NCBI GenBank assembly: GCA_964344575.1
Contig: CAYFOA010000005.1
Location: 15,105 to 79,104, forward strand
Source: an uncultured Rickettsiales bacterium
GTDB lineage: Bacteria > Myxococcota_A > UBA796 > UBA9615
Direction: 5' to 3'
Length of the DNA: 64,000 nucleotides
The notes under the pieces were generated by a model, which was given only the letters and a program-made list of their open reading frames with translations, was not told the origin of the DNA and did no database searches. A program made the translations under genes and the position numbers. The stretch's first letter is position 1. The number at the start of each line of letters is the position of its first letter. This document shows, one piece after another, positions 16,156 to 39,530 of this stretch.

Positions 16156-17556
16156 ATGAGCCGGCTCCTCCTCGCGGCGCTCCTGACCCTCCTGTGCGCG
16201 TGCCCCGCGCCGGAGTCCGAGCCGGTCCCGGTCGTCCCCGAGGACCCCGGCCCCTGGCCGATCACCACGGGGCTGAGCGTGACGGACGTCGTGGTCAACC
16301 AGGGGGTCGAGATCGCGCTGCAGCGCGACGGCGAGCCGGTCGCCGAGCGGAACGCCCCCGTCGTCGCCGGGCGGCCGCTCCTCGTCCGCGTCGCCGTCGC
16401 CACGGACTTCCTCTGGAACCCGCGGGAGGTGCGCGCCGAGCTGACCCTGCTCCAGCCCGACGGGACGTCCGACCGGCGCGACCAGGTCGTCTTCGTCGAC
16501 GAGGACGGCGACCTGCTCGACCCCGACACGACCCTGCACTTCCGGCTCGCGGCGACCGACGTCCTCCCGGGGACGCGCTTCGCCGTCAGCTTCTGGGCGA
16601 CCCGGGACCTGGGCCAGGACGGCGACCCCGTGGCGTGGCCCGCGTACGGCGAGACGGCGCCGCTGCTGGCCGACGACGCCGGCGGCCTGCTCCGCGTCTG
16701 GCTCCTCCCCGTCCGCTACACCGCCGACGGCAGCGACCGCCTCCCCGACACCAGCCCCGAGCAGATCCGCCTCCTCGAGGAGACGCTCGCCGGGATGCTG
16801 CCGGTGCGGGCCGTCGAGCTGTCGGTCCTCGACCCGATCGAGACGACCGAGCACTGGGACAGCGGAGGCGCGTCCATGGGCGCGCTCCTGAGCCACCTGC
16901 GCGACCTCCGCGAGAACCTCCACGTCCCCTGGGACACGTACCTGTACGCGCTCGTCAGCCCCCGCAACACGTGGGGCGGGTTCTGCAACCTCGGCTGCAC
17001 CGCGGGCATCTCCTACCGGCCCACCAACCCGATCAACGACCGCCTCCGCGTCAGCGTCGGGCTGGGCTTCACCGGGGTGAACGCCGCCTACGTGATGGTC
17101 CACGAGCTCGGCCACGCGCACGACCGGGGGCACGCGCCGTGCGGCAACGCCGGCAACGTCGACCCCGACTTCCCCTACGTCGGCGGCTGGATCGGGACGC
17201 GCGGGTACGACGTCGTCAACGACGTCCACTACGGCACCGTCGACGCGTACGACGTCATGGGGTACTGCGACCCGGACTGGGTGAGCGACTACACCTACGC
17301 GGCCGTCCACGAGCGGATGGGGGCGGTCGAGGGGCTGCGGGACGAGCACAGCGCCCGCGCGGTGGAGGACTGGACGGCGATCGACGTGTTCGGCGGCGAG
17401 GTCCGGAAGGTCCACCCGACGCGGTCGTTCGCGTTCACCCCCGAGGGCGATCGGGTCGACGTCGAGCTCCCCGACGGCCGCACGGTCGAGGGCTGGCGCG
17501 TCCCCATGACGCACATCGACGGGGCGACGATCTTCGTCCCCGGCGCGATCGACTAG
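16156..17556 (+). CDS. Secreted zinc metalloprotease lipoprotein
   Basis: Lipobox LLCAC and the zinc-binding motif HELGHAHDRGH (HExxHxxxxxH). The ATG overlaps the stop of a CPBP-gene remnant (CCATGA). Confidence 0.7.
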   Translation: MSRLLLAALLTLLCACPAPESEPVPVVPEDPGPWPITTGLSVTDVVVNQGVEIALQRDGEPVAERNAPVVAGRPLLVRVAVATDFLWNPREVRAELTLLQPDGTSDRRDQVVFVDEDGDLLDPDTTLHFRLAATDVLPGTRFAVSFWATRDLGQDGDPVAWPAYGETAPLLADDAGGLLRVWLLPVRYTADGSDRLPDTSPEQIRLLEETLAGMLPVRAVELSVLDPIETTEHWDSGGASMGALLSHLRDLRENLHVPWDTYLYALVSPRNTWGGFCNLGCTAGISYRPTNPINDRLRVSVGLGFTGVNAAYVMVHELGHAHDRGHAPCGNAGNVDPDFPYVGGWIGTRGYDVVNDVHYGTVDAYDVMGYCDPDWVSDYTYAAVHERMGAVEGLRDEHSARAVEDWTAIDVFGGEVRKVHPTRSFAFTPEGDRVDVELPDGRTVEGWRVPMTHIDGATIFVPGAID

Positions 17557-23949: not shown

Positions 23950-26292
23950 TCAGGGCGCCTCGGCGACGCCGCTGCCTTCGACGACGCGGAGGCGCTGGTT
24001 GGGGACGACGCCCTCGATCGTCTCCGTCGCCCCCCCGACCCAGCGGACGGTGACGCTGTCGACGGCGTCGAGATCCGCGAGCCCGAAGTGGACGACGCGG
24101 GAGGACTGGGCGTTGACGTGGGCCCCGGGGCCGCGGACGTCGCGCATCTGGGTGTCCCCGCCGGCGGTCAGGGTGACGCGGGCCCCGAGGGCGTCGCGGT
24201 TGCTCGTCGTCCCCTCCAGCTCCAGCTGCACCCAGCTCCGGTCCTGGCCGACGGTGTTCTCGAAGACGGCGTCCTCGATGACGATGTCGAGGTCGCCGTC
24301 GGTGTCGAAGTCCGCCCACACGAGGCTGACCGTGTCGTGCCGCTGCAGGCCCGCCTCGTGGGTGACGTCGAGGAACGTGCCGTCGTCGTTTCGGTAGAGG
24401 CGGCTGTAGTGGTTCGGGTAGATGGACGCGATCGCGAGGTCGAGGTCCATGTCGTGGTCGAAGTCGGCGAACGTCGCGTTGAAGTCCCCCTCGTCGTAGA
24501 GGAAGCCGCGCTGCTCGGTCTCCGGGTAGAAGCGGTAGTCGGGCGGGCCCTGGTTGACGAGGAACTGGCTCGGGTCGGACCACGGGTGCTCGCGGGGGTG
24601 GGCGAGGTTGGCGACGTACAGGTCCATGTCGCCGTCGTTGTCGAAGTCGCCGAAGTCGCCGCCGTAGCTGTGCCCGCCGGTCAGCAGGGGGTGGCCGGAC
24701 TCGATGCCGTCGAAGGCCGCGTTCACGTCCTCGGCGACGTCGACGAAGGTGCCGTCGCCCTGGTTGGCCCAGAGCTGGTTCGGGTAGAGGTGGTAGTTGC
24801 TGACGTAGATGTCCTGGTGGCCGTCGTTGTTCCAGTCGTTCCAGAGCACGCCGTACACCGAATACGGGTAGGTCAGCTCGAGCCCGGCGGCCTCGAACGC
24901 GTCGGTGAAGGTGCCGTCGCCGTTGCCTTCGAAGTAGCGGTCGGGGTGGGCGGGGTGGTCGGGGTAGGTGATCAGCCAGTTGCCCCAGTAGACGTCGAGC
25001 GCGCCGTCGCCGTTCGCGTCGCCGAAGCCGGCGCCGGTGGACTGGTCCCAGACCTCGACGCCCGAGCCTTCCAGCTCGGTGAAGTACCCCGCGCCGTCGT
25101 TGAGGAGGACGTGGTTGGTGGTGGCCTCGTCGGTGGTGCCGTCGCAGTCGTTGTCGAGGTTGTCGCCGACTTCGAGCGCGTCGGGGTGGACGACGTCGAG
25201 CGTGTCGTCGCAGTCGCCCTCGGACAGCGCGACGCCGTCCCCGTCGGCGTCCTGGTCGTCGAGGCCGTCGTCGGCGACGCCGTCGCAGTCGTCGTCCCGC
25301 CCGTTGCCGGCGACCTCCTCGGCGTCGGGGTGGATGGCGGCGTCGCCGTCGTGGCAGTCGACGGACTTGTCGAAGCCGTCGCCGTCGTCGTCGGGACCTG
25401 CCCACGTGGTGGTGAAGGCGTCGGCGTCGCCGTCGTTGTCGAGGTCGGCGAAGAAGGTGGTGCCCGCGACGACGTCCTCGGGGAAGCGGCCGTCGGTGGA
25501 CTCCGTGAAGCCGCCGGCGCCGTCGCCGAGGTAGACGGTGGGGCCGCCGGACAGGACGAGGTCCTCGTGGCCGTCGCCGTCGACGTCTGTCACGTGGGGG
25601 GCCGAGCCCGTGCCGAACGGCCCGGCGAGCGGCTGGAACCAGCGGTCGGCGTCGGACCACGCGCAGAAGAAGCGGCCGCGGAGCTTCATCCGGAAGTTGG
25701 CGTCGGTGGACCAGGGGAAGAACTCGCCGGGGACGAGCATGAGCGCCTGGGAGGAGCCGTCGGGTCCGAGGGTCTCCTTGACGACGCCGGGGCCGCCTTC
25801 GAGGCGCTCGCTGACCACGTGGTAGTGCTGCGTGGGGAGGAGGAAGACGTCGTGCTCGCGGACGTCGAAGTTGACGTACGTCTCGGGGTCGACGACGTCC
25901 AGCGTGCCCTCGATGGGGGGGACGAGGTCGGCGTCGGGGTTGTCGACGTCGGGGTAGGAGCGGCCGAGGCTGGTGGTGAGGCGGACGCGGTAGGGGCCGG
26001 CGGGGCCGGCGAAGCGGACGCGGATCTCCTCGACGTGGAACGGCTGCGGGGGGATGACCTTCTGGCTGTGGACGGTGCCGGCGGGGAGGTCGAACCAGCC
26101 GTAGTAGTTGCCCTGGAGGTCGGGGACCTGGGCGTCCTCGACGGTCTCCTCCCAGGGGACGTCGCAGAAGCGGTCGAAGTCGGCGGTCGGGCCGAGGGCG
26201 GGGGCGGGGGTCGGCTCGGGCTCGGGCTCGGCGGACGGGCAGCCGGCGAGGAGCGCGGCGAGGGCGGCGGCGGCAGCGACGCGGCGCACGTC
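23950..26292 (-). CDS. ASPIC/UnbV plus FG-GAP lipoprotein with MopE-like Cys-Asp metal-binding motifs
   Basis: Lipoprotein signal VRRVAAAAALAALLAGC. MopE-like motifs such as CHDGDAAIHPDAEEVAGNGRDDDCDG, FG-GAP repeats and a UnbV_ASPIC C-terminus. The start is hand-chosen within a longer GC-shadow ORF. Confidence 0.7.
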   Translation of the reverse strand, partial: DVRRVAAAAALAALLAGCPSAEPEPEPTPAPALGPTADFDRFCDVPWEETVEDAQVPDLQGNYYGWFDLPAGTVHSQKVIPPQPFHVEEIRVRFAGPAGPYRVRLTTSLGRSYPDVDNPDADLVPPIEGTLDVVDPETYVNFDVREHDVFLLPTQHYHVVSERLEGGPGVVKETLGPDGSSQALMLVPGEFFPWSTDANFRMKLRGRFFCAWSDADRWFQPLAGPFGTGSAPHVTDVDGDGHEDLVLSGGPTVYLGDGAGGFTESTDGRFPEDVVAGTTFFADLDNDGDADAFTTTWAGPDDDGDGFDKSVDCHDGDAAIHPDAEEVAGNGRDDDCDGVADDGLDDQDADGDGVALSEGDCDDTLDVVHPDALEVGDNLDNDCDGTTDEATTNHVLLNDGAGYFTELEGSGVEVWDQSTGAGFGDANGDGALDVYWGNWLITYPDHPAHPDRYFEGNGDGTFTDAFEAAGLELTYPYSVYGVLWNDWNNDGHQDIYVSNYHLYPNQLWANQGDGTFVDVAEDVNAAFDGIESGHPLLTGGHSYGGDFGDFDNDGDMDLYVANLAHPREHPWSDPSQFLVNQGPPDYRFYPETEQRGFLYDEGDFNATFADFDHDMDLDLAIASIYPNHYSRLYRNDDGTFLDVTHEAGLQRHDTVSLVWADFDTDGDLDIVIEDAVFENTVGQDRSWVQLELEGTTSNRDALGARVTLTAGGDTQMRDVRGPGAHVNAQSSRVVHFGLADLDAVDSVTVRWVGGATETIEGVVPNQRLRVVEGSGVAEAP

Positions 26293-26294
26293 CC

Positions 26295-27206
26295 TCACCG
26301 CACCCGGAAGACGTCGGCGTTGTACCCCCAGGCGACGCCCCCGCCGGTGAACACGGCGGCCTGGACGGAGACGGGGAGGACGTGGGTCGCGGGGACGCCG
26401 CCCATCTCGAAGGGGTCCTCGCCGACGTCGCCCATCGTGGCGCTGGAGTCGGGGTCGGACGCCCAGAGGTAGTGGGCGCTGACGGAGCCGTCGGCGGGCC
26501 AGTCGCCGGGCTGGCCGCCGCAGTCGCCCCCGCGGCCGGGGGTGAGGAGGAACCAGTCGCCGCCGGAGCCTTCGACGTAGACCTCGAGGCCGCTGCCGCC
26601 GCCGTCCTGCCAGTCGCCCCCGTCGTCGTCGCCGGCGACGGCGACCATGCGGGCGCCGGGGTGGAGCTCGCCGAGGACGGGTCGGAGGGCCTCGATCTGC
26701 GACGGCAGGTAGGGCTCGCCGGAGTCGGGGTGGGCGTAGCCGACGTCGAAGGCGACGAGGGCGCTCGCCTCGAGCACGACGTCCTCGACGACGTCGTCTT
26801 CGTGGCCGATGTGGACGAAGTTGAAGGCGGCGTCGTCGGCGCACTTGAGCCAGGGGTTGTCCTCGGCGCGGGAGACGACGAGGACGCCGTCGGCGTCGTC
26901 CAGGGCGAGCCGGATCCAGCCGCCGCCGTCGTCGGTCATGTCGCAGGCGACGACGAAGGCGGGCTCGGTGGGGTTGCCGCCGTCGACCCAGTAGTCGCCG
27001 TCGTCCAGGTCCGGCGCGAGGACGAGGAGGTCGGCGCAGGAGGGGACGGCGCACTCGGCGTCGAGCCCGTGCCGGTCGGTGCAGTCGGGCCCCGGATCGG
27101 GCGTCGGCTCGGGGGTCGCGGTGTCGTCGTCGTCGTCCAGCGGACCGCCGGTGGGGCAGGCGGTCAGGAGGAGGAGGAGGGCGAGGCCGGGGATCGGGGG
27201 ACGCAT
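26295..27206 (-). CDS. Lipoprotein with a fibrinogen-related domain (FReD/FBG-like)
   Basis: Signal MRPPIPGLALLLLLTAC, then DCTDRHGLDAECAVPSCADLL...DGDYWVDGG...PAFVVACDMTDDGGGWIRL, matching the FBG-domain hallmark (xCDMxTDGGGWT). Confidence 0.6.
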   Translation of the reverse strand: MRPPIPGLALLLLLTACPTGGPLDDDDDTATPEPTPDPGPDCTDRHGLDAECAVPSCADLLVLAPDLDDGDYWVDGGNPTEPAFVVACDMTDDGGGWIRLALDDADGVLVVSRAEDNPWLKCADDAAFNFVHIGHEDDVVEDVVLEASALVAFDVGYAHPDSGEPYLPSQIEALRPVLGELHPGARMVAVAGDDDGGDWQDGGGSGLEVYVEGSGGDWFLLTPGRGGDCGGQPGDWPADGSVSAHYLWASDPDSSATMGDVGEDPFEMGGVPATHVLPVSVQAAVFTGGGVAWGYNADVFRVR

Positions 27207-27286
27207 CGCGTCCGGGCAGGTTACGTCATGGCGCGACGAAGCCGGGGGGCACCGTCGGCGGGGCTGAGTCCGGCTCGCGGTCGCCC

Positions 27287-28564
27287 TCAGATCGCGACCG
27301 CCGGGGCGGCCTCCTCGGTGGGGACGTCGGGGACGTACAGGCGTCGCTGGAGGGGGCCGGCCGCGGCGATGAGGACGAGCCCGACGGCGGCCCCCGCGAG
27401 CGCTCCCCAGAGGTGGAGATCGCTCGCCGCGGGGACGTTGTCGCGGAGCCACGTCAGCCCCGCCGCCGTCGTGATGCGCGCCGCCATCCAGGCGCCGACG
27501 ACGGCCGTCGTGGCCCGCCAGTGGTGGTCGCCTCCGATCCGGGACAGGAGCAGGGGGCCGACGAGGACCTCGCCGAGGGCGAGGAGCGCGAACACCGCGA
27601 CCAGCTGCTCCGGCGCCCGGTTCGGGTCGAGCAGGGTCACCCCGAGCGAGAGGATCGCGAGGCCGAGGCCGGCGACGCGGAGGGCGGGGACGTTGCGCCG
27701 GGCCGTCGCGAGGACGACGAAGCACGCGCTTACGAGCAGGCCGAACCAGCCGACGAAGGCGGGGTTGACCAGCTCCCACCAAGCGCCGCTGAACAGGGTG
27801 GGGAGGTACACGGGGACGCCGAACACGTATCCGGTCGCGCTGGAGTAGGAGCCGCCGATCCCGCTGAACATCGGCGCCGCGGCGTCGAACCACGTCATGG
27901 CCGCGCTGTAGGGGAGCACCACCACGACGCCGAGGGCCGCCGCCGTCGCCACCACCGGGAGGTCGAGCCGCTCGGTCACCGCCTCTGCGTCGGCGTCCGG
28001 GTCGCGGGTCAGGAACCAGCCCGCCCACAGGAGCGCTGCGAGGCTCGCGGCCACGCCCGCCAGAGTGGCCGCCGAACCGTAGGCGAGCACGCCGCCGCCC
28101 TGGTTCAGGAGCATCTCCCAGAGCACCGGCCCGGCGATGGCCGTCCCCCCCGCTAACGCCCACAGCCCGATCACCATCGCGTTCCGGGCGGCCTCGTAAG
28201 GGCGGGGGAAGGGGAGGACGGCGGCGGCCCACAGGCACGGCGCGATGACGCCGTAGCCCAGCGCCGCGCCGTTCCGGGCGGCGTCCATCCACGCCGGCCC
28301 GACCACGGGGACGAGGAACCAGGACAGCGCGACGAGGAACAACCCGCCCGCGAGCACCAGCCACGGCCCGACTGCCACCGCCGCCGCCGCCGCCGCCGCG
28401 ATCCCGACGAGCGTCAGCGTGCGCTCCGTCGTCCCGGCGTAGGCCGCGATCTCGGCGTAGTGCCCGTCGACGAGGATCGGGTGCGTTCCCCACCACGCCC
28501 ACGCCTGGAGGGTCAGGATGGCGGGGAGGAAGAGGACCGCCGCGAGGCGCCGGCTGGGACGCAC
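27287..28564 (-). CDS. Polytopic integral membrane protein of unknown function
   Basis: 425 aa with 10-12 predicted TM helices. Co-directional and tightly spaced with the upstream HAD gene. Confidence 0.6.
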   Translation of the reverse strand: MRPSRRLAAVLFLPAILTLQAWAWWGTHPILVDGHYAEIAAYAGTTERTLTLVGIAAAAAAAVAVGPWLVLAGGLFLVALSWFLVPVVGPAWMDAARNGAALGYGVIAPCLWAAAVLPFPRPYEAARNAMVIGLWALAGGTAIAGPVLWEMLLNQGGGVLAYGSAATLAGVAASLAALLWAGWFLTRDPDADAEAVTERLDLPVVATAAALGVVVVLPYSAAMTWFDAAAPMFSGIGGSYSSATGYVFGVPVYLPTLFSGAWWELVNPAFVGWFGLLVSACFVVLATARRNVPALRVAGLGLAILSLGVTLLDPNRAPEQLVAVFALLALGEVLVGPLLLSRIGGDHHWRATTAVVGAWMAARITTAAGLTWLRDNVPAASDLHLWGALAGAAVGLVLIAAAGPLQRRLYVPDVPTEEAAPAVAI

Positions 28565-28567
28565 CCC

Positions 28568-29128
28568 TCAGAGCTCCCAGGTGTCCCAGGTGGTGAAGAG
28601 GCGGGCGTCGACGCCGGCGGCGCGGGCGGCGGCGACCAGGTCGGCGCGGTCGTCCCAGAACACAACGGGGCGGCCGGCGGCGACCACCGCAGCGAGCTCG
28701 TCGAAGGCCCCGGGGTCCGCTTTGACGCGGCCGCGCTCGAAGCTGAGGAGGTAGCGGTCGAAGCCGCGCAGCCAGGGGTGGTCGTCGAGGACGCGGGCGA
28801 AGTGGGCGGGGTCCGTGTCGGACAGCATCCAGAGCTCGCGGCCGGCCGCCCGCAGCTCGGCGAGGGCGCGCGCGGCGGCCGGGCGGGGGGTGAAGATCGC
28901 GGTCCACGACTTGAGCAGCGCCTCGACGTCGGCGTCTCCGGCGAGGCCCCCGAGGAACGCCCGGGGGGAGAGCCGCCCGCGGTCGAGGTCGTGCTTGGGC
29001 GGCGTCGACGGCGCCGCCCGGGCGACGTCCTCGGCCAGACCCGCCGCGACGGCCCCGGCCACCCACCGCTCGAAGTCGACGTCCACGAGGACGTTCCCGA
29101 GATCGAAGACCAGCAGCGGGTCGGTCAC
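28568..29128 (-). CDS. HAD-superfamily hydrolase
   Basis: HAD motif I near the N-terminus (VTDPLLVFDLGNVLVDVD). The start was moved from the track's GTG at 29179, which lies inside the operator palindrome, to the GTG at 29128. Confidence 0.55.
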   Translation of the reverse strand: MTDPLLVFDLGNVLVDVDFERWVAGAVAAGLAEDVARAAPSTPPKHDLDRGRLSPRAFLGGLAGDADVEALLKSWTAIFTPRPAAARALAELRAAGRELWMLSDTDPAHFARVLDDHPWLRGFDRYLLSFERGRVKADPGAFDELAAVVAAGRPVVFWDDRADLVAAARAAGVDARLFTTWDTWEL

Positions 29129-29138
29129 GGGCCGAAGG

Positions 29139-29186
29139 TTGACACGCCGGGGCGCGCCGGATAGTAAGTAAGCAATCACTTACTAA
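29139..29186 (+). promoter_or_regulatory. Sigma70-like promoter (TTGACA-N17-TAGTAA) overlapping a perfect 8-bp inverted-repeat operator (TAGTAAGT-N8-ACTTACTA) upstream of the TetR gene
   Basis: AT-rich palindrome at 29162..29186 in a high-GC intergenic region. The -35 is at 29139..29144 and the -10 at 29162..29167. Confidence 0.45.
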
Positions 29187-29197
29187 CGGGGTGCGAA

Positions 29198-29794
29198 ATG
29201 GCCCGACCGCGACAGTTCACCGACGCGCAGATGCTGGAGGCCGCCCGGGAGGCGTTCCTCGAGCAGGGGCCCGGCGTCTCGACCACGGCGATCGCCGAGC
29301 GGCTGGGGGTGTCCCAGGCCGCGCTGTTCAAGCGGTTCGGGACCAAGGAGGGGCTGCTGCTGAAGTCGATGCTCCCCGACGGGCCGCCGCCGTTCGTGGG
29401 GCAGCTGCTCGGCGGCCCCGATCCCGACCGGCCGCTGACCGATCAGCTCGCCGAGTTCGGGCGCAACGCCGTCGCCTTCCTGCGCGAGATGATGCCCCGC
29501 ATCCAGTGCATCCACGCCGCCGGGCTCGAGCCCGCGGACCACTTCGGCGACGCCGAGAACCTCCCCCCCGTCGTCGTCCGGCGGCTGCTCACGACCTGGC
29601 TGGAGGTCGGCCGGGACCAGGGCCGGATCGCCGGCGACGTCGACCTCGAGACCGCCGCCAGCGCGCTGATGGGGGCGTTCCAGTTCCGCGCCTTCCTCGG
29701 CCGCTTCTGCGGCGGGGCGGTCGCCCCCGAGGACGACGGGGACTACGTCGAGGGCGTCGTCGGCGCGCTGTTCCGCGGATTGGAGCCCCGATGA
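29198..29794 (+). CDS. TetR family transcriptional regulator
   Basis: N-terminal HTH (TTAIAERLGVSQAALFKRFGTKEGLL), 198 aa, immediately upstream of the RND efflux genes. Confidence 0.85.
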   Translation: MARPRQFTDAQMLEAAREAFLEQGPGVSTTAIAERLGVSQAALFKRFGTKEGLLLKSMLPDGPPPFVGQLLGGPDPDRPLTDQLAEFGRNAVAFLREMMPRIQCIHAAGLEPADHFGDAENLPPVVVRRLLTTWLEVGRDQGRIAGDVDLETAASALMGAFQFRAFLGRFCGGAVAPEDDGDYVEGVVGALFRGLEPR

Positions 29795-31215
29795 GAGCCC
29801 CCCTGCAGACCCTGTCCCTCCTGCCGGCGGCGGTCCTCCTCTCCGTCGCCCCCGCCGCCCCCGCCGCCGCCCAGTCGCCGCTCTCGTTCGGGGACGCCGC
29901 CCTCGACGGCGCCATCGACCGCGCGCTCGCCGCCAACTACGACGTCCAGGCCGCCCGCGCCCGCCTCGCCCAGGCCGACGCCCTGTCGTGGACCGCCCGC
30001 GCGTCGCTGATGCCGCAGCTCAGCTTCGGCCTCGGCGTCAACGTCCAGCCCTACGACGCCCTGACCTTCGGCCGGCCCGACTTCGAGATCGAGTGGCCCG
30101 ACATCCCCGGGTTCGAGCCCCCCGAGGAGGACGAGGACGAGGACCCGGCCCTGTTCTGGTCGGGCTCGGCCATGCTCAACCTCGGCTGGCAGCCCGACGT
30201 CTTCGCCCGCCAGGCCCACGCTCACAAGGCGTCGCGGCTGGACGTGCGGGCCGCCGCGGGGGACCGCGACGCCCTCGCCCAGGCCACCGCCGTCCGCGTC
30301 GCCGCCGCCTGGTTCGACCTCGCCGCGGCGAAGGCGCGCGTCGCCGTGATCGACGAGCAGATCGCGACCAACGAGCAGGTCCTCGCCGTCGCCGAGCTGC
30401 GGTTCGCGTCGTCGGACGGAGGCGGGCTCGACGTCGCCCAGCAGCGCGGCCAGCTCGCGGCCACCCGGGCGCTCCTCCCCCCCGCCCGCGCCGCCGTCCG
30501 GCAGCTCCGCGAGCAGCTCCGCGTGCTGCTCGCGCTGGAGCCCGGCGAGGAGTTGATGGAGCCCCGGGCGGAGATCCCCGAGCCGGCCCACACCATCGAC
30601 CCCGTCCTCGACGAAGCGGCGGTCCAGGCGACCGTCCAGGCCGACCCCGACGAGCTGACCGCGGACCGCCCCGACCTGCGCGCCGCCGTCGCCCGCGCCG
30701 AGGCCGCCCGCGCCCGCCACGTCAGCGCCGGGCTGGGGCTGCTCCCCACGCTGCAGCTGTCCGGCAACGCCGGCGTGCAGGGGGTCCACGCGGACGAATT
30801 CGACACCCTCTGGACCTGGGGCGCCGGTGCGACCCTGTCCGTCCCGATCTTCTCCGGCCTCGGCCCCTGGGGGAGCGTGCGCCAGGCCCGCGCCGCCGAG
30901 GTCGCGGCCGCTGCCACCCTCCGGCAGGCCACCGCGACGGCGCAGGCGCAGGTCGCGTCGGCGGTCGCGCGGGAGGACGAGGCGATCGCGCAGCTCGTCG
31001 CCACCGAGGCCCAGCTGGAGGCCGCCGAGATCGCGTTCACGATCAGCCTCGATCGCTACACGTCGGGCCTGACCGGCTACTCCGGCGTGCTGCTCGCGCT
31101 GGCGTCCAAGCAGGCCGCCGAGCTGAGCGCCATCACCGTCCGCCGCGAGCGCCTCGCCGCCCGCGTCGCCCTGCTCGACGCCCTCGGCCGCGTCGAGCTC
31201 CCGGAGGTCCGCTGA
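29791..31215 (+). CDS. Outer membrane efflux protein (TolC/OMF family)
   Basis: ATG overlapping the TetR stop (ATGA). Signal peptide plus two OEP-type repeats. Confidence 0.8.
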   Translation: MRAPLQTLSLLPAAVLLSVAPAAPAAAQSPLSFGDAALDGAIDRALAANYDVQAARARLAQADALSWTARASLMPQLSFGLGVNVQPYDALTFGRPDFEIEWPDIPGFEPPEEDEDEDPALFWSGSAMLNLGWQPDVFARQAHAHKASRLDVRAAAGDRDALAQATAVRVAAAWFDLAAAKARVAVIDEQIATNEQVLAVAELRFASSDGGGLDVAQQRGQLAATRALLPPARAAVRQLREQLRVLLALEPGEELMEPRAEIPEPAHTIDPVLDEAAVQATVQADPDELTADRPDLRAAVARAEAARARHVSAGLGLLPTLQLSGNAGVQGVHADEFDTLWTWGAGATLSVPIFSGLGPWGSVRQARAAEVAAAATLRQATATAQAQVASAVAREDEAIAQLVATEAQLEAAEIAFTISLDRYTSGLTGYSGVLLALASKQAAELSAITVRRERLAARVALLDALGRVELPEVR

Positions 31216-32405
31216 TGTCCCTGCCCCGCCCCCTCCGGATCGCGCTGCCGTTCGCCATCGTCGCGTTCGGCCTGATGGCCGCCGTCCTCCTGGTGAAGAC
31301 GCGGAGCAAGGCCGAGCGCTCGCAGGCACCGCCGCGCGCTCCCGTCGTCGACGTCCTCGAAGCCGCCCCCGGCGATCTCGTCGCCACCGTCGAGGCGACC
31401 GGCGTCGTCGTCCCGTCCCGCGAGGTCGCCATCGCCGCCGAGGTCGGGGGGCGGGTCGTCCGCGTCAGCGACGCGCTGGTGCGCGGGGGCCGCTTCGCCC
31501 CCGGCGACGTCCTCTTCTCCGTCGACGCCCGCGACTACGAGCTCGCCGTCCGCCAGGAGGCCAGCCGCGTGCAGCAGGCCGAGCTCGAGCTGGCCCTGGA
31601 GCGCGAGCGCGGGGCCGTCGCCGCCCGCGAGCTGGACATGCTCGGCGCCGGGTCGTCGGACGCCCCCGGCGCCGGCGCCCTGGCCCGCCGCGAGCCCCAC
31701 CTCGCCACCGCCGAGCGCGCCCTGGAGGCCGCCCGGAGCGCGCTGGAGCGGGCCGAGCTGAACCTCTCCCGGACCACCGTCCGCGCGCCGTTCGCCGCCG
31801 TCGTCCGGAGCGAGACCGTCGAGGTGGGGCAGGTCGTCCAGCCCGGGATGGCGGTCGCGACGCTCCTCGGGAGCGAGCTGTTCTGGGTCGACATCAGCGT
31901 CCCCGTGGACCGCCTCCGCGTGCTCGACGTCCCCGGCCTGGGGGGCGCCGACGCCGGCTCCGCGGCGGTCGTCACGCAGGATCTCGGGGGCAACGGCGGC
32001 CTCGCCCGGACGGGCCGCGTCGTCGGCCTCGCCGCGGACCTCGACCCCCGCACCCGGACGGCCCGCGTGCTCGTCGGCGTCGACGCCCCCCTGGATCCGC
32101 CCGAGGGCGGCCTGCCGCTGCTCCCCGGCGCCTTCGTCGAGGTCGCCGTCAGCGGCCGTACGCTCCCCGGCGCGATCGCCGTCCCGCGGACTGCGCTGGT
32201 CGACGGCGACGCCGTGTGGGCCGTCGGCGCCGGCGACGCGCTCGTCCGCCGCGCCGTCGAGGTCGGCTGGGAGCAGGCCGACACGGTCGTCGTGGTCGGC
32301 GGCCTCGACGCCGGCGACCGGGTCGTCACGACGAAGATGTCGCTCCCCATCGAGGGGATGAAGGTCCGCGTCGCGGGCGCCGGCGCCGAGGGCGACGACG
32401 CATGA
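31215..32405 (+). CDS. RND efflux membrane fusion protein (HlyD/AcrA family)
   Basis: Start overlaps the OMF stop. N-terminal TM anchor, then a coiled-coil/beta-barrel MFP architecture. Confidence 0.8.
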   Translation: MSLPRPLRIALPFAIVAFGLMAAVLLVKTRSKAERSQAPPRAPVVDVLEAAPGDLVATVEATGVVVPSREVAIAAEVGGRVVRVSDALVRGGRFAPGDVLFSVDARDYELAVRQEASRVQQAELELALERERGAVAARELDMLGAGSSDAPGAGALARREPHLATAERALEAARSALERAELNLSRTTVRAPFAAVVRSETVEVGQVVQPGMAVATLLGSELFWVDISVPVDRLRVLDVPGLGGADAGSAAVVTQDLGGNGGLARTGRVVGLAADLDPRTRTARVLVGVDAPLDPPEGGLPLLPGAFVEVAVSGRTLPGAIAVPRTALVDGDAVWAVGAGDALVRRAVEVGWEQADTVVVVGGLDAGDRVVTTKMSLPIEGMKVRVAGAGAEGDDA

Positions 32406-35400
32406 GGACGGTCGGCCCCATCGCCTGGATGGCGCGCAACCCCGTCGCCGCCAACCTGCTGATGCTGCTCATCTTCGCGGGCGGCTTCCTGGGGATGTGC
32501 AACGCCAAGAAGGAGGTGTTCCCCGCGTTCTCGCCGGACGTCATCGCCGTCGCCGTTCCCTACCCGGGGGCCAGCCCGGCGGAGGTCGAGCAGGGGATCG
32601 TGCTCGCCGTCGAGGAGGCCGTCCGCGGCATCGACGGCGTCAAGCGCGTCAACAGCCAGTCGGCCGAGGGCTCCGGCACCGTCACCGTCGAGTTGCTCAT
32701 CGACGCCGACGCCGACCAGGTGCTGTCGGACGTCAAGACGGCGGTCGACCGGATCCGCTCGTTCCCGGAGGAGGCCGAGGACCCCAAGGTCGCGCTGGCG
32801 TCGCGCCGGAGCCACGTCATCAGCGTCCTCATCGCCGGCGACGTCGGCCGGAAGACGCTCCACGGGATCGCTGAGAAGGCGCGCGCGGACCTCCTCGGCA
32901 CGGGCGAGGTCACGCAGGTCTCCATCGGCGGGGTGCCCCCCCTGGAGGTCGCGATCGAGGTGCGCCGGTCCAGCCTGGAGGCGTACGGGCTGAGCTTCGT
33001 GGACGTCTCCCGCCAGGTCGCGGCGGCGAGCCTGGAGCTCCCCGGCGGCGGCATCGACACGAGGGCGGGCGAGATCCTCGTCCGCGTCGCCGACCGGAAG
33101 CGGGACGGAGACGAGTTCGGGGACATCATCGTCGCCGCGACGGACGACGGCTCGGTGGTGCGGCTGCGGGACGTCGCCGCGATCACGGACGGCTACGCGG
33201 ACACCGACGAGGCGATCTACTTCGACGGGCGGCCGGCGGTCCGGCTGTCGGTCTACCGGACCGGCGACGAGACCCCCAAGGGGATCGCGACCATCGTCAA
33301 GGACTACGCGGGGACGCTGGAGGAGACGCTCCCCGCGGGGGTCTCGCTGCACCCCTGGGACGACGACTCGAAGATGCTCGAGGCGCGCATCTCGCTGCTG
33401 ACCCGGAACGCGCTCCTCGGCGGCTTCCTCGTCGTGCTCGTGCTCGCCCTGTTCCTCGACCTCCGGCTGGCCTTCTGGGTGTCGCTCGGCATCCCGATCA
33501 CCTACCTCGGCATGCTCGCCCTGATGCCCGCGCTGGACGTGAGCATCAACATGATCACGCTGTTCGCGTTCATCGTGACGCTGGGGCTGGTCGTCGACGA
33601 CGCCATCGTCGTGGGGGAGGCGGCCTACGAGAAGATGGAGTCCGGGCTGCCGCCGCTCGACGCGGCCATCGCCGGGGCCCGCCAGATGGCCGTCCCGGTG
33701 ACGTTCGCGATCCTCACCTCGATCGCCGCGTTCAGCCCGCTCCTCACGGTGCCCGGGGTGATGGGCAAGATCTTCAAGCTGATCCCCGCCGTCGTCATCG
33801 GCGTGCTGGCGTTCTCGCTGATCGAGTCCTTCTTCGTCCTCCCCGCCCACCTCGGGCACGGGCCCCCGTCCGACCGGCGGGGGAACCGGGTCAACCGGGC
33901 CGTGCAGGCGCGGCTGCAGGGCTTCATCGAGCGGCGCTACAAGCCGTTCCTGCGGGTCGCGATCGCGAACCGGGCGATCGTCATCGCCACGGCGGTGGCG
34001 CTCTTCGCCGTCACGATCGGGACGGTGGCGAGCGGCCGGGTGCCGTTCCACTTCTTCCCCCGCATCGAGTCGGACGTGGTCGTCGCCTCGGCGCGGCTCC
34101 CCTACGGCAGCCCGCTGGCGCAGACGGAGCGGGTCAAGGAGATCCTCGAGGCGTCCGCGGCGGCCACCCGGGACCGGCTCGGGGGCGGCGTCGAGGGGAT
34201 GATCAGCAACGTCGGCCGGGGCCCCGAGCCGCGCGGTCCGGCGCGGAGCCAGGAGATCGGCGGCCACCTCGTCGCGATCGAGCTGCAACTGGTGGACCGG
34301 GAGGCCCGGGAGTACGGCGCGCACGCCTTCGCGGCGGCGTGGCGGAAGGCGACGCCGCCGCTGGCGGGGGTCGAGACCATCAGCTTCAGCGGCGGCGGGG
34401 GGCCGAGCGCGGGAGCGGACATCGCGATCCAGCTGAGCCACGCCGACACGGCCGTCCTCGAGCAGGCGAGCCGCGAGCTGGAGGAGGCGTACCGGGGCTA
34501 CGACCAGCTGACGAACATCGCCAACGAGTTCGCGGCGGGGAAGCCGCAGCTGGACTTCCACCTCAAGCCCGAGGCGCGGACGCTGGGGCTGACCGCGCAG
34601 GACGTCGCCGCGCAGCTGCGGGGGAGCCTGTTCGGCGCGGAGGCGCTCCGGGAGCAGCGGGGGCGGAACGAGCTGAAGGTCATGGTGCGGCTGCCCGCGG
34701 ACCAGCGCGCCTCGGAGCACGACCTCCGCCTGATGCAGATCCGGACCCCCGCCGGCGGCCACGTGCCGCTCCTGTCGGTGGCGGAGTTCGAGCGGGGCCG
34801 CTCGCCGACGTCGATCGACCGGGAGGGGGGGAAGCGGGTGGTCAACATCACCGCGGACCTGAAGCCGGGCATCGACTCGCCGCGGGAGGTGCGGGAGGAC
34901 CTGGAGGGGGTCGTGCTCCCCGAGCTGCTCGCGAGCCACCCGGGCCTGGGCTGGGCCCCGGTCGGCAGCCAGCGCGCGCAGAAGGAGTCGATGCGGGCGC
35001 TGGGGATGGGGTACCTGCTGGCGCTGATCGCGATCTACGCGCTGCTCGCGGTGCCGTTCCGGAGCTACGTGCAGCCGGTGATCATCATGTCGGCGATCCC
35101 CTTCGGCTTCGTCGGCGCCGTGCTGGGCCACGCGATCATGGGGTTCGAGCTGAGCCTGATGAGCTTCTTCGGGATCGTGGCGCTGTCGGGCGTGGTGGTG
35201 AACGACTCGCTGGTCCTGATCGACGCGACGAACCGGTTCAAGGCGGAGGGGAGGACCGCGCGGGAGGCGATCGAGGCGGGCGCGGCGCGGCGCTTCCGGC
35301 CGATCCTGCTGACGTCGCTGACGACCTTCTTCGGGCTCGCCCCGATGCTGCTGGAGACGGACCCCCAGGCCCGCTTCCTGATCCCGATGGCGGTGAGCCT

Positions 35401-35575
35401 CGGCTTCGGCGTGCTCTTCGCGACGCTGATCGTCCTGATCCTGGTCCCCGCGCTGTACCTCGTGGTCGAGGACATCCGCGCCTGGTTCGCGGCGACGGAC
35501 GAGGAGCTCGACGCCCGCCGCTCGTCGCCGCCCCCCACGCTCCCCGACGGACGAGGAGCCTGGGACCCGACCTGA
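32402..35575 (+). CDS. RND efflux transporter permease (AcrB/HAE1 family)
   Basis: ATG overlapping the MFP stop (ATGA). 1057 aa with 12 TM helices and two large periplasmic loops. Conserved AcrB motifs (e.g. FGLAPMLLETDPQARFLIPMAVSLGFGVLFATL). Confidence 0.9.
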   Translation: MRTVGPIAWMARNPVAANLLMLLIFAGGFLGMCNAKKEVFPAFSPDVIAVAVPYPGASPAEVEQGIVLAVEEAVRGIDGVKRVNSQSAEGSGTVTVELLIDADADQVLSDVKTAVDRIRSFPEEAEDPKVALASRRSHVISVLIAGDVGRKTLHGIAEKARADLLGTGEVTQVSIGGVPPLEVAIEVRRSSLEAYGLSFVDVSRQVAAASLELPGGGIDTRAGEILVRVADRKRDGDEFGDIIVAATDDGSVVRLRDVAAITDGYADTDEAIYFDGRPAVRLSVYRTGDETPKGIATIVKDYAGTLEETLPAGVSLHPWDDDSKMLEARISLLTRNALLGGFLVVLVLALFLDLRLAFWVSLGIPITYLGMLALMPALDVSINMITLFAFIVTLGLVVDDAIVVGEAAYEKMESGLPPLDAAIAGARQMAVPVTFAILTSIAAFSPLLTVPGVMGKIFKLIPAVVIGVLAFSLIESFFVLPAHLGHGPPSDRRGNRVNRAVQARLQGFIERRYKPFLRVAIANRAIVIATAVALFAVTIGTVASGRVPFHFFPRIESDVVVASARLPYGSPLAQTERVKEILEASAAATRDRLGGGVEGMISNVGRGPEPRGPARSQEIGGHLVAIELQLVDREAREYGAHAFAAAWRKATPPLAGVETISFSGGGGPSAGADIAIQLSHADTAVLEQASRELEEAYRGYDQLTNIANEFAAGKPQLDFHLKPEARTLGLTAQDVAAQLRGSLFGAEALREQRGRNELKVMVRLPADQRASEHDLRLMQIRTPAGGHVPLLSVAEFERGRSPTSIDREGGKRVVNITADLKPGIDSPREVREDLEGVVLPELLASHPGLGWAPVGSQRAQKESMRALGMGYLLALIAIYALLAVPFRSYVQPVIIMSAIPFGFVGAVLGHAIMGFELSLMSFFGIVALSGVVVNDSLVLIDATNRFKAEGRTAREAIEAGAARRFRPILLTSLTTFFGLAPMLLETDPQARFLIPMAVSLGFGVLFATLIVLILVPALYLVVEDIRAWFAATDEELDARRSSPPPTLPDGRGAWDPT

Positions 35576-35615
35576 GTCTTTCCGGAGCGCTCCCGCGCCG
35601 GTTGGCACGGACGAG

Positions 35616-36113
35616 GTGCCGAAGCGACTCCTGCTCTCCATCCTCCTGGCCGTCGCGGCCTGCGGCTGTCGCGGCTCCTCGATCCTGGATCAGTGCCTCG
35701 AAGGAAGCCCGCTGTTCGTCCTCGACACCTGGCCGGGGTGCTCCCACATGTGCCCCTTCGACTCCTGCCTCGGCGGTTTCGGGACGGCTCCACCGATCCG
35801 CACCAACGCGATCATCGAGGTCGAGACAGGGAGCGCCGACCCGCTCGCGCTGGAGCCCGACGACGGCCTCGGCGAGGTCACGATTCGGAACGTCGGCGAC
35901 GACACGCTTCAGCTCCAGTTCGTCGAGATCGAGCGGACCACCGCCTGGACGGTGGACACGACCGACCTGACACGGCTCCTCGGCCCCGACGACTCGACCG
36001 TCCTCGTCCTCCACTACGAACCCCTCGCCGAGCTCCCCGCCGAGGGCGTCCTCCGGATCGGCTCGAACGACCGCGAGCACCCGGAGGTCGGCGTCCGGCT
36101 GCTTACCGACTGA
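35616..36113 (+). CDS. Cys-rich lipoprotein, possibly a choice-of-anchor-D-like beta-sandwich
   Basis: Lipobox LAVAACGC. A later segment (LGEVTIRNVGDDTLQLQFVEIERTTAWTVDTT...VLVLHYEP) resembles the choice-of-anchor D / ASH domain pattern. Confidence 0.5.
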   Translation: MPKRLLLSILLAVAACGCRGSSILDQCLEGSPLFVLDTWPGCSHMCPFDSCLGGFGTAPPIRTNAIIEVETGSADPLALEPDDGLGEVTIRNVGDDTLQLQFVEIERTTAWTVDTTDLTRLLGPDDSTVLVLHYEPLAELPAEGVLRIGSNDREHPEVGVRLLTD

Positions 36114-36140
36114 GCTTCGCGGGACGGGCATGATCGGCCC

Positions 36141-36675: not shown

Positions 36676-37476
36676 TCAGCGCCCCCCGATCGTCTCCACC
36701 ACCTCCGCCTCCCGCCGCCCCCGACGCCTGGGCCGGCCGGTCCCGATCCGGTCCAGGAGCACGACGCCGACCAGATCCTGCAACCCCCGGAGGTAGCGGA
36801 AGGGGCCGTACTTCGACCGCCCGAACGGCCGCCGCGCGTGGCGGACGGGGACCTCCGTGACGCGGAACCCGCGACGGTGGAGCAGCACGGGGACGAAGCG
36901 GTGCATGTCGTCCCCCAGCTCCAGCGCCGCCGCCGCCTCCGCCGTCATCGCCTTCATCCCGCAGTTGACGTCCCGCAGCCTCAGCCCCGAGAACGAGCTG
37001 CAGAGCACGTTGAACGCCCACGACGCCGCCACCTTCGCGCGGGCGTCCTGCCGGTCGCGGCGCCACGCCTGGACCACGTCGAAGTGGCCGCCGTCGAGCA
37101 CGCTGAGCAGCTTCGGGAGCTCCTCGGGGAGGTCCTGCAGGTCGGCGTCCATCGTCACCACGAACCGCCCCCGCGCCGCCTCGATCCCCCGCTGCAGGGC
37201 CGCCGACTTGCCGTGCCGCGCCCCCAGCCGGAGCGCCCCGAACCGCCCGTCCTCGTCGTGCAGCCGGTGCAGCGTCCGCCCCGTCCCGTCGGCGCTCCCG
37301 TCGTCCACCACGATCAGCTCGAACGTCCGCCCGTCCCGCTCCAGCACGTCCCGCAGCGAGTGCGCCAGCACCACCAGCGAGGCCTCCTCGTCGTGCGCGG
37401 GGACCACCACCGTCACGTCCGGCCGCGCCGGCGCCGGCGCCTTCCCCCCGTCGAGCACCCGCATCGTCGCCGTCAT
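36676..37476 (-). CDS. Family 2 glycosyltransferase (polyprenol-phosphate sugar transferase-like)
   Basis: GT2 motifs VTVVVPAHDEE, VVDDGSADGT and TMDADLQD. The start ATG at 37476 overlaps the stop of the upstream Yip1 gene by 1 nt. Confidence 0.8.
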   Translation of the reverse strand: MTATMRVLDGGKAPAPARPDVTVVVPAHDEEASLVVLAHSLRDVLERDGRTFELIVVDDGSADGTGRTLHRLHDEDGRFGALRLGARHGKSAALQRGIEAARGRFVVTMDADLQDLPEELPKLLSVLDGGHFDVVQAWRRDRQDARAKVAASWAFNVLCSSFSGLRLRDVNCGMKAMTAEAAAALELGDDMHRFVPVLLHRRGFRVTEVPVRHARRPFGRSKYGPFRYLRGLQDLVGVVLLDRIGTGRPRRRGRREAEVVETIGGR

Positions 37477-38285
37477 CAGAACCCCTCGCGGCTGATGATG
37501 AAGATGATGTAGACGATGTAGCAGGCGATGCAGACCGCGAACGGGATGAGGATCCCGAGCGCCGACTTCCAGCCGTCCTGCTCGTGGATCTGGGTGTACC
37601 CGATGCCCTGCAGCGGCAGGTACCACGCCCACGCGACGTAGTTGCAGCAGGGGATGAGCTGGAGGATCTGGACGGGGCTCGTCATGAGGACCACCCGCAG
37701 CGTCGCCCCCACGCCCTGCCGGCCGCCGCCCACGAGCAGCATGACGACGTGGTGGACCAGCGCCCACACGAACATCATCACGAGGAGCCAGACGGGCGGG
37801 ATGATGGTGTAGATGGCGCCGACGAAGGCCATCACGAGCCCCATCTCCGGCTCCCACGGGATCTCCCCCGCGGCGATGAAGATCCCCACCGCGCCCCCGA
37901 TGCAGGTGACCAGGCCGAAGTAGAAGATCGCCAGCCACGCGGTGCTGATCAGCGCGAAGAGGACCGCGCCGCCGATGGGGGCGTGGGGGTCGAGCTTGCG
38001 GAAGTAGTCGACGGGCTGCACCGCGAGCATGCCCGCCGTCTGCGCCCACGCCCGAAGCATGCCGAGGTTGGCGCGGTCGTCCCAGGGCAGGCCGAACACG
38101 CTGACCCGGTCCTCGCGCACGCAGGTCGCGCAGATCTGGCGGCTCCCCAGCCACCCCAGGCAGGCGCCGCAGGAGAACGTCCCGCAGTGCTCGCACGTCC
38201 CCACCGACGGCCGGTCGGGATGGTTCGCGCAGGTCGGGCCGAGGGGCTCCGAGGGGCCGGCGGTCGGCTCGGTCTCAAGCGACAT
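37476..38285 (-). CDS. Yip1-family membrane protein with an N-terminal zinc-ribbon
   Basis: N-terminal CANHPDRPSVGTCEHCGTFSCGACLG...CATC with four Cys pairs, then a 5-TM Yip1-like domain. Paralogous to 38694..39530. Confidence 0.65.
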   Translation of the reverse strand: MSLETEPTAGPSEPLGPTCANHPDRPSVGTCEHCGTFSCGACLGWLGSRQICATCVREDRVSVFGLPWDDRANLGMLRAWAQTAGMLAVQPVDYFRKLDPHAPIGGAVLFALISTAWLAIFYFGLVTCIGGAVGIFIAAGEIPWEPEMGLVMAFVGAIYTIIPPVWLLVMMFVWALVHHVVMLLVGGGRQGVGATLRVVLMTSPVQILQLIPCCNYVAWAWYLPLQGIGYTQIHEQDGWKSALGILIPFAVCIACYIVYIIFIISREGF

Positions 38286-38694
38286 CGGCGATCCAGACGT
38301 AGCCCCAGTTGACGAACACCGCCGCCACGACCGCCCCCCGCAGCGTCCACGCCTCCCGCTCCGACCCCGTCCGGAGCCGCACCGCGGGGACGCCCGCGAA
38401 CCGCCGCAGGGCCAGGTAGGCGACGAACAGGATCGCGCTCAGCGCCAGCGCCGCCCCCAGCGGGTTCTGGAGGAAGGCGGCGACGCCGTGCCCGTGCATC
38501 ACGTGGATCCAGGACCGCGTCATCCCGCACGCGACGCACGGGTACCCCGTCCCGAGCTTGAACCCGCACATCGACGGCAGCGCGTGGAAGGGGACGAACC
38601 GCGCCGCTACCAGCGCCGCCCCCGCGATCAGGGCCAGCGACCCCGTCAGCCAGGGATCCGCCGGCGGGGCGTCGCGGTCCAGCTCGAGGCGCAT
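38275..38694 (-). CDS. DUF2752 domain membrane protein
   Basis: CPxCGxTR-type motif (YPCVACGMTRSW) characteristic of DUF2752. 139 aa. 1-nt start/stop overlap with the upstream gene. Confidence 0.6.
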   Translation of the reverse strand: MRLELDRDAPPADPWLTGSLALIAGAALVAARFVPFHALPSMCGFKLGTGYPCVACGMTRSWIHVMHGHGVAAFLQNPLGAALALSAILFVAYLALRRFAGVPAVRLRTGSEREAWTLRGAVVAAVFVNWGYVWIADVA

Positions 38695-39530
38695 CAGTAG
38701 CCGGAGCCGCTCATCAGCCCCGCCGCGACGAACCCGAACACCACCGCGCCGGCGCAGACGCAGAAGATCGTCACCGCCAGCGGCCACAGCACCGCGATCG
38801 CGCCCTTCCACCCGGCGGTCCGGTGGATCCCGATGACCCCGAGGATGAGGAGGACGTACAGCCACAGGCCGGCGACGAGCTGCCCGCAGATCGGGATCAC
38901 GCCCCACGCGAGGATGCACCAGCCGTAGTACGTCGCCTTGAGGGTCCCCTTGAGGCCGTGCTCGTTGCCGCCGACGACCATCAGCCCGAGGTGGATCAGG
39001 AGCGCCGCCACCGTCGCCCACAACAGCGACTGCAGCGGGAACGTCAGCGCCTGGAAGCCGGACCGGAGGATCGACGGCTCGATCGACCGGAGGTACATCT
39101 GCGTGACCACGTGGTCCTCGCCGAGGAGGTCGATCACCGGCTGCGGATCCTGGGGGAAGACCGCCTGCGAGCCGTAGTTGATGCCGGCGGCGACGAAGCC
39201 GGCCGGGATCAGGACGATCAGCAGCAGGATGATCGCGTCCTTGATCCGCTCGGTCGGGTGGAGGGACTCGAAGAACGAGACGGGGTGGAGGGTCAGCTCC
39301 ATCATCGTCTGCCCGAGGGCGGCGAAGAGGCCGAGCTCGGCGCGCCGCTCCCAGGCGCAGAGCTGCTGCTCGCTGACGCGCCCCTCCTCGACGCACGTCC
39401 GGCAGATGACCTCGCCGTCCATCGTGCCGAGGCACTCGCCGCATCCGTAGTTGCCGCAGTGGGAGCACGTGCCGACCGACGGGACGCCGTCGTGGACGGC
39501 ACACATCGCCGTGGGGTGGGCTGGATCCAT
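38694..39530 (-). CDS. Yip1-family membrane protein with an N-terminal zinc-ribbon (paralog)
   Basis: CAVHDGVPSVGTCSHCGNYGCGECLG...CRTC followed by a Yip1-like TM domain. Confidence 0.65.
   Translation of the reverse strand: MDPAHPTAMCAVHDGVPSVGTCSHCGNYGCGECLGTMDGEVICRTCVEEGRVSEQQLCAWERRAELGLFAALGQTMMELTLHPVSFFESLHPTERIKDAIILLLIVLIPAGFVAAGINYGSQAVFPQDPQPVIDLLGEDHVVTQMYLRSIEPSILRSGFQALTFPLQSLLWATVAALLIHLGLMVVGGNEHGLKGTLKATYYGWCILAWGVIPICGQLVAGLWLYVLLILGVIGIHRTAGWKGAIAVLWPLAVTIFCVCAGAVVFGFVAAGLMSGSGY

Follow-up and report, generated by a model that had tools for sequence, protein, structure and literature searches.

An acidic lipoprotein of a Myxococcota family that joins a fibrinogen-type N-terminal subdomain to a predicted β-sandwich of its own

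The DNA considered here is a stretch of 64,000 nucleotides (nt; hereafter the window) of contig CAYFOA010000005.1, from an uncultured bacterium labelled Rickettsiales, which encodes on its reverse strand a strongly acidic lipoprotein of 303 amino acids (aa). This protein belongs to a small, unnamed, Myxococcota-based family. Its similarity to fibrinogen-related domains (FReDs), fibrillar-collagen C-propeptides and intelectins is confined, as judged by profile comparison, to an N-terminal disulfide-clamped subdomain of about residues 49-102, and the remainder is predicted to fold into a β-sandwich peculiar to the family. On balance we lean, by a modest degree, towards regarding it as an acidic surface lipoprotein that would serve as a binding module, with an ancestral link to a glycosyltransferase of family 2 (GT2) and with a metzincin-like lipoprotein as a frequent neighbour. 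The gene and its parts are as follows.

26295..27206, reverse strand: gene of the 303-aa acidic lipoprotein (open reading frame and translation), stop codon at 26295-26297
27156..27206, reverse strand: signal peptide and lipobox MRPPIPGLALLLLLTAC with Cys17, read from the sequence
26901..27062, reverse strand: N-terminal subdomain, residues 49-102, with the invariant Cys57-Cys88 pair and CDMxxxGGGW (NCBIfam and PDB profile matches, hhalign)
26298..26900, reverse strand: C-terminal 201 residues (103-303), family-specific predicted β-sandwich (AlphaFold model, Foldseek)

The gene is real and conserved. It was called by codon usage, in agreement with the public calls on the identical metagenome contig; two crude open reading frame pickers failed in this DNA of 74% guanine plus cytosine (GC) and were discarded in favour of the codon-usage caller. 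The GC content of the gene equals the local value (window about 74%), and comparison of 36 homologues leaves 34 invariant columns. The original prediction had described a 303-aa lipoprotein carrying the motif DGDYWVDGG...AFVVACDMTDDGGGWIRL, and both were found: the motif lies at residues 68-100, which read DGDYWVDGGNPTEPAFVVACDMTDDGGGWIRL, and the protein starts with the lipobox LLLLTAC17, whose cysteine is kept in at least 90% of the homologues in alignment A1 (the profile of 35 homologues). The protein therefore falls into the lipoprotein class by its lipobox, and its lipidation is predicted. The stretch following the lipobox is an acidic, proline-rich linker, and the mature protein as a whole (26298-27155) contains 57 acidic residues (43 Asp, 14 Glu) versus 9 basic ones (8 Arg, 1 Lys), giving a net charge of about -48. 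Its sole lysine, K121, is invariant across the family. A scan for promoter and terminator consensus sequences found nothing useful.

The fibrinogen-type motif is, by sequence comparison, far beyond chance. The NCBIfam model NF040941 (GGGWT_bact, the ‘fibrinogen-like YCDxxxxGGGW domain’, 46 positions) matched residues 56-98 over its positions 1-44 with 41 bits against a cutoff of 30 (E=1.4e-10). The A1 profile, searched against the PDB, found XEEL (E 1.5e-6) and intelectin-1 (E 2.3e-6) as top matches, followed by tenascins, FIBCD1 and fibrinogen (E 1e-5 to 1e-4) and also procollagen C-propeptides. It is on this NF040941 score above cutoff, together with the profile E-values of 1e-6 to 1e-4 to intelectin/XEEL, tenascin, FIBCD1 and fibrinogen, that the judgement is based. 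All of these PDB matches span just 44-80 columns or so and always lie at the start of the matched domains.

The extent of the similarity is equally restricted in the Pfam searches. Fibrinogen_C (PF00147), the family whose hidden Markov model should have recognised a domain of the fibrinogen type, scored 12.3 bits against a cutoff of 22 (E=0.15) over 22 residues and profile positions 25-46 of 221, and was thus not significant. COLFI (PF01410) reached 16.7 bits against a cutoff of 26.2 (E=0.0046) over residues 55-92 and profile positions 31-69 of 233. Among the homologues, weak matches to Fibrinogen_C were obtained in 24 of 35 and weak matches to COLFI in 31 of 35 (best E 2.4e-6); some distant family members exceed the Fibrinogen_C cutoff, within profile positions 3-52. 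Direct hhalign comparison of A1 with the C-propeptide of human COL1A1 aligned 44 columns (residues 49-93) with a probability of 70%, and with the human fibrinogen gamma domain 46 columns (residues 55-102) with a probability of 16%, the reference sequences having been verified against PDB 5K31 and 1FIB, respectively. Finally, a profile of residues 103-303 alone (alignment A2) matched no PDB chain and no Pfam family, FReD, collagen and intelectin chains all being absent, from which we infer that the N-terminal subdomain is the only shared piece. The hallmark of a fibrinogen C-terminal domain, which the original prediction had assigned to the protein, thus holds for the first 50 or so residues of the domain but does not extend to residues 103-303.

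Structure prediction gave a related picture. An AlphaFold2 model of the whole protein, built with A1, had a predicted local distance difference test score (pLDDT) of 88 and a predicted template-modelling score (pTM) of 0.82. In a Foldseek search of the PDB with this model, ranks 1-17 were all chains of procollagen I/III C-propeptides (E 3e-6 to 4e-4, probability 1.0, template-modelling (TM) scores 0.32-0.49), whereas ficolins, ANGPTL6, fibrinogen, FIBCD1 and tenascin came lower, with E of at least 1e-3 and TM of about 0.2. The expected comparison to ficolin-type structures therefore did not bear out a FReD, and the whole predicted fold appears nearer to the collagen C-propeptide. Residues 103-303 were also modelled separately to see whether the N-terminal piece drives the C-propeptide ranking. 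This model had a pLDDT of 88 as well and a best Foldseek match of E=0.016, i.e. nothing significant. Its matches were generic β-sandwiches, such as neuropilin b1, SPRY, GOLD, galectin-like lectins, CBM4/32 and viral jelly rolls; C-propeptides appeared at ranks 39 and 45, with the highest query-normalised TM scores listed (0.31-0.34), and FReDs were absent from the top 50 matches. The body of the domain would accordingly be described as a predicted β-sandwich of uncertain affiliation, weakly C-propeptide-like, and not as a fibrinogen P subdomain.

Conservation is not restricted to the N-terminal subdomain. The invariant set includes the Cys pairs 57/88 and 122/229, NPWxKCxDD and the DxD in GDDDGGxW, and further invariant elements are LEVY, LLTPGxGG(D/E)CG, TGGGV and a C-terminal arginine; the invariant C-terminal residues include N117, W119, K121, C122, D124, D193, D195, E208, Y210, C229 and R303. 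It is a reasonable inference that the Asp/Glu cluster probably forms a divalent-cation site, through which the lipoprotein would be stabilised. In FReDs, the calcium site and the acetyl-binding pocket would fall in the region equivalent to residues 103-303. As neither a central nor a P subdomain was detected by sequence, and FReD structures reached TM scores of about 0.2, there is no evidence for either, and neither a calcium site nor an acetyl-binding pocket of the fibrinogen type can be recognised in the protein.

The 36 homologues, 38-65% identical to the protein, all come from metagenomes or metagenome-assembled genomes (MAGs) labelled Myxococcota, Nannocystis or ‘Proteobacteria’, and their public names are ‘hypothetical protein’ or ‘MopE-related protein’. 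Among the GTDB species representatives, 29 loci (34-65% identity) were found, in MAGs of Myxococcota, Polyangia, Nannocystaceae and Bradymonadia as well as in the cultured Paraliomyxa miuraensis (locus L025), the latter being an experimentally tractable entry point; several high-GC MAGs among these loci carry the label ‘Rickettsiales’. A search with the C-terminal profile retrieved at least 22 proteins, all unnamed. A full-alignment search of a 1.84-billion-protein representative set was swamped by the MopE repeats of the homologues, so its match counts cannot size the family, and it is used here to show that the domain occurs as the C-terminal module of multidomain proteins. In most members MopE repeats lie between the lipobox and the domain, and the window protein has none. 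In longer proteins the domain is C-terminal and accompanied by MopE, P_proprotein, DUF4842, CarboxypepD_reg/Big_9/PKD, or Stig1 with Laminin_G_3, company typical of secreted binding modules.

Some genomes carry more than one copy. Two paralogues lie about 20 kb apart on MAG contig JAAESI010000325.1 (L009, 7775-8677, and L032, 7407-8768), one of them short like the window protein and the other with MopE repeats, and the loci L022, L023 and L029 likewise hold two clustered family members. A second copy in the window (53212-56376) was considered and rejected, as it had been clustered via MopE repeats only and is devoid of the domain. In searches of the literature, no publication on such proteins from bacteria, myxobacteria included, came up. 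A recent transfer from animals seems unlikely; the gene has the local GC content and its homologues, 34-65% identical, are spread across many Myxococcota lineages.

The genomic surroundings were compared across 31 distinct loci, including the window (i.e. 30 others), by clustering all genes within 10 kb. In the window, the relevant features on the side of the lipoprotein start and stop are the following.

28568..29128, reverse strand: HAD-IA hydrolase, 186 aa (Pfam Hydrolase, 38 bits; start matches the public and codon-usage calls)
27287..28564, reverse strand: orphan polytopic membrane protein, 425 aa, with at least 10 hydrophobic segments by hydropathy, 80 nt upstream of the lipoprotein gene
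23950..26298, reverse strand: ASPIC/FG-GAP/MopE lipoprotein, 782 aa (FG-GAP_3 114 bits, UnbV_ASPIC 62 bits, MopE 44 bits)
22597-23892, reverse strand: periplasmic binding protein, then ABC transporter genes (gene call)
29198-29794, forward strand: TetR regulator (Pfam), divergent, 69 nt from the HAD start
29129..29197, no strand: HAD-TetR intergenic region with a perfect TTGACA at 29139-29144 and the palindrome TAGTAAGT-N8-ACTTACTA at 29161-29186
29198..35575, forward strand: operon of TetR, outer-membrane factor (OEP), membrane fusion protein and resistance-nodulation-division (RND) pump (Pfam, gene calls)
35616-36662: two small genes, part of a 9.47-kb block
36676..39506, reverse strand: ancestral partners, i.e. 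ArnC-like GT2 (36676-37476), Yip1-like (37476-38285), DUF2752 (38275-38694) and Yip1 (38694-39506)

In the closest relatives of the lipoprotein (L003, L006 and L009, 54-65% identity) the genes Yip1, DUF2752, Yip1 and GT2 stand immediately upstream, and in all three the end of GT2 and the start of the lipoprotein gene share 4 nt. The same Yip1-DUF2752-Yip1-GT2 cluster is present in the window in the same orientation, separated from the lipoprotein start by 9.47 kb (27207-36675). This block, which consists of the two small genes, the TetR-OEP-membrane fusion protein-RND operon and the genes of the HAD hydrolase and the orphan membrane protein, appears to be an insertion in the lineage of the window, since L006, the more distant relative, has the contiguous arrangement; no repeats were found flanking the insertion (9.5 kb). 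The nearest matches of the GT2 are the polyprenol-phosphate sugar transferases ArnC, PgfS, PpgS and AglJ. The ancestral transcription partner of the lipoprotein would thus be an ArnC-like GT2 within a Yip1/DUF2752 membrane-protein cluster, a context that points to glycosylation of the envelope, albeit differently from what the original prediction proposed. Beyond the cluster lies a divergent pair (39560-42741, forward strand) of a 517-aa lipoprotein with Glucodextran_B and a Ser/Thr kinase fused to an FGE-sulfatase domain, which is syntenic in L003, L006 and L009. Ser/Thr kinase neighbours, seen at 7 loci, were set aside as generic for myxobacteria.

The immediate neighbours present another picture. 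The HAD hydrolase, the polytopic membrane protein, the ASPIC/FG-GAP/MopE lipoprotein and the divergent TetR gene are all where they had been reported, as confirmed by Pfam, hydropathy and gene calls, and the GTG start of the ASPIC gene overlaps the lipoprotein stop by 4 nt (GTGA). The 425-aa membrane protein matched only itself among 5.8 billion proteins and had no Pfam or NCBIfam match; the codon usage of its gene is of the coding type. In tblastn searches of the HAD, membrane, ASPIC, binding and TetR proteins against the 30 other loci none was found, save for MopE-repeat matches to the ASPIC protein, and gene clustering likewise revealed no HAD, membrane-protein or ASPIC neighbour there. The AT-rich palindrome, situated 12 nt upstream of the TetR start, is likely a TetR operator overlapping the efflux promoter, and together with TTGACA in the HAD-TetR spacer it suggests that the HAD transcription unit is tied to the efflux module and not to the lipoprotein. 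The HAD/membrane protein/lipoprotein/ASPIC ‘operon’ would therefore be a recent, genome-specific juxtaposition and not a conserved complex.

Proteins of the ASPIC/FG-GAP type are, moreover, common in the window. Three ASPIC/FG-GAP lipoproteins are encoded within the 64 kb (12771-14411 and 14487-16091 on the forward strand, 23950-26298 on the reverse), and a 1054-aa lipoprotein with ten MopE repeats and FG-GAP lies at 53212-56376 (reverse strand). Their frequency weakens any inference drawn from adjacency. Upstream of the forward-strand ASPIC pair is a gene for a 704-aa protein (10636-12750, forward strand) with a match to Cytochrome_C554 (multihaem type), and directly downstream of that pair is the following gene.

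16156..17556, forward strand: metzincin-like lipoprotein (HELGHAHDRGH ... DVMGYC; gene clustering and motif)

The family to which it belongs, lipoproteins of about 480 aa, is the most frequent neighbour of the present lipoprotein family, well ahead of the rest, and occurs within 10 kb in 10 of the 31 distinct loci. Its motifs HExGHxHxRxHxxC and, downstream, DxMxYC are invariant, and we take them to be a metzincin-type zinc site and Met-turn. Peptidase_M66 was just above cutoff in one member only, and NCBIfam gave no match for the family. The gene is adjacent and convergent in L007 (8952-10463), L013 (1163-2623), L017 (8949-10400) and L026; in L034 (4364-5830) and L036 (5359-7692) the two genes share a strand, with 15 nt between them in the former and 4 nt of overlap in the latter. 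In the window it is convergent and 8.7 kb off, with the ASPIC gene and the ABC transporter operon in between. The recurrence of this neighbour makes it, in our opinion, the best lead to function.

Based on these observations, we suggest that the protein may be a lipoprotein of the cell envelope or surface, in which a single globular domain of about 255 aa would be composed of the N-terminal disulfide-clamped subdomain and the family-specific β-sandwich, and that it may act outside the cytoplasm as a module that binds a glycan or a protein. Two candidate partners are thereby indicated, the ArnC-like glycosyltransferase cluster and the metzincin-like lipoprotein. Several points weigh against this interpretation. 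The TM scores to C-propeptides remain below 0.5, and, because the C-terminal part alone gave nothing significant, it may largely be the shared N-terminal subdomain that makes the Foldseek scores significant. The Asp/Glu metal site is a putative one, proposed from residue conservation. The GT2 linkage is confined to the closest clade (4 distinct genomes) and the metzincin-like linkage is absent from two-thirds of the loci (21 of 31), while in the window the gene is translationally coupled to the ASPIC gene and may have a local functional link with it.

The recurrent neighbour allows for another suggestion, namely that the lipoprotein either assists the metzincin-like lipoprotein as a partner for targeting or substrate recognition, or else serves it as a substrate or inhibits it. 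The association is maintained across homologues just 34-65% identical, includes four adjacent-convergent arrangements and two of same-strand coupling, and concerns a protein whose HExGHxHxRxH...DxMxYC signature is invariant and present in the window copy. Nevertheless, no such gene lies within 10 kb in the 21 other loci, and that of the window is distant, so we regard this possibility as unlikely.

It is unlikely, too, that the domain serves mainly as an oligomerisation (trimerisation) knob in the manner of the fibrillar-collagen C-propeptide, clustering the lipoproteins themselves, or N-terminal MopE and other modules, at the surface. The best structural matches are indeed C-propeptide trimers, COLFI gives the closest similarity in both Pfam and hhalign, and the domain is always C-terminal in its multidomain relatives, as in collagens and fibrinogen-related proteins. 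However, the bacterial protein has neither a coiled-coil stalk nor a Gly-X-Y region, the loop equivalent to the calcium loop of C-propeptides is without an invariant column, and the TM scores below 0.5 were obtained with a model that represents a monomer only.

The same resemblance raises a broader evolutionary proposal, which we put forward tentatively and with considerable doubt: the family, with its complete domain of about 255 aa and its C-propeptide-closest fold, might be a prokaryotic branch of the superfamily behind animal FReDs and the fibrillar-collagen C-propeptide. FReDs and collagen C-propeptides are usually treated as modules of the animal extracellular matrix and immunity, and the animal C-propeptide pairs with the BMP-1/tolloid proteinase, a pairing that the metzincin adjacency would echo. 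If the proposal is true, the shared N-terminal subdomain either predates animals or has moved between bacteria and early animals, and the bacterial proteins might constitute a simple model for studies of partner binding or oligomerisation by the module. 

A very unlikely reading is the one originally put forward, i.e. a genuine FReD lectin for acetylated sugars that would form a surface complex together with the membrane protein and the ASPIC/FG-GAP lipoprotein. In its favour, the CDMxxxGGGW motif is present with its flanking disulfide, some distant members pass the Fibrinogen_C threshold in the initial part of that profile, and the genes are closely packed, with 4 nt of overlap on one side and 80 nt of spacing on the other. 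On the other hand, the protein itself gave a non-significant Fibrinogen_C score and no similarity past residue 102 or so, and FReD structures matched the whole model poorly and were absent from the top 50 matches of the C-terminal model. As for the complex, the membrane protein is an orphan, neither neighbour is kept in the 30 other loci, and with at least four FG-GAP-type proteins in 64 kb adjacency comes cheap. This attractive annotation as an acetyl-sugar lectin complex is thus corrected here as unsupported. It is extremely unlikely that the C-terminal β-sandwich is catalytic, e.g. a jelly-roll glycanase or lyase for which the N-terminal subdomain is a structural cap, for although D124, E136, D142, D193, D195, E208, Y210, Y246 and W248 are invariant and a xylanase, an ulvan lyase and a sialidase are among the weak fold matches, these enzyme matches are non-significant (E of at least 0.1, probability below 0.15), and the searches of Pfam and NCBIfam gave no enzyme family.

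The preferred interpretation, a surface binding module with a body of its own, can be set beside several known systems. One is GGGWT_bact (NF040941), which has the same Cys...CDMxxxGGGW architecture; the occurrence of the motif in bacteria had thus already been flagged by NCBI, and no long-standing question is opened by it. That model describes the short N-terminal piece alone, whereas the other 200 residues of the lipoprotein are without any Pfam or NCBIfam model.

The procollagen C-propeptide (PDB 5K31, 4AE2 and 6FZV) is the best fold match of the whole model, and COLFI the most similar profile, the similarity spanning G(E/D)YW(I/V)D...C(D/N)M; the C-propeptide is also a C-terminal domain, like the module in the multidomain relatives of the lipoprotein. 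Unlike it, the protein described here is a bacterial lipoprotein devoid of a coiled-coil stalk and collagen repeats, and its C-terminal part is not significantly similar. Where the calcium loop of the C-propeptide aligns, the segment from D69/G70 to C88 has no invariant column in A1, and residues 75-83 vary in both sequence and length.

With FReDs (ficolins, tachylectin 5A, FIBCD1, tenascin and angiopoietin) the lipoprotein has in common the disulfide of the first subdomain and the CDMxxxGGGW(I/T) strand. Unlike in FReDs, no central or P subdomain, with its calcium loop, second disulfide and ligand pocket, is detectable in it.

The intelectins, or X-type lectins (PDB 4WMQ and 4WMO), differ from the lipoprotein in that the match ends after about 50-65 residues and that they are not among the top 50 fold matches, and the calcium-dependent, diol-binding body of intelectins was found in the lipoprotein neither by profile nor by fold searches. 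They nevertheless offer a parallel in organisation, as they keep only the fibrinogen-like N-terminal part before a divergent body, like the bacterial family. A family that retains the N-terminal subdomain on a different body suggests that this subdomain is a portable unit.

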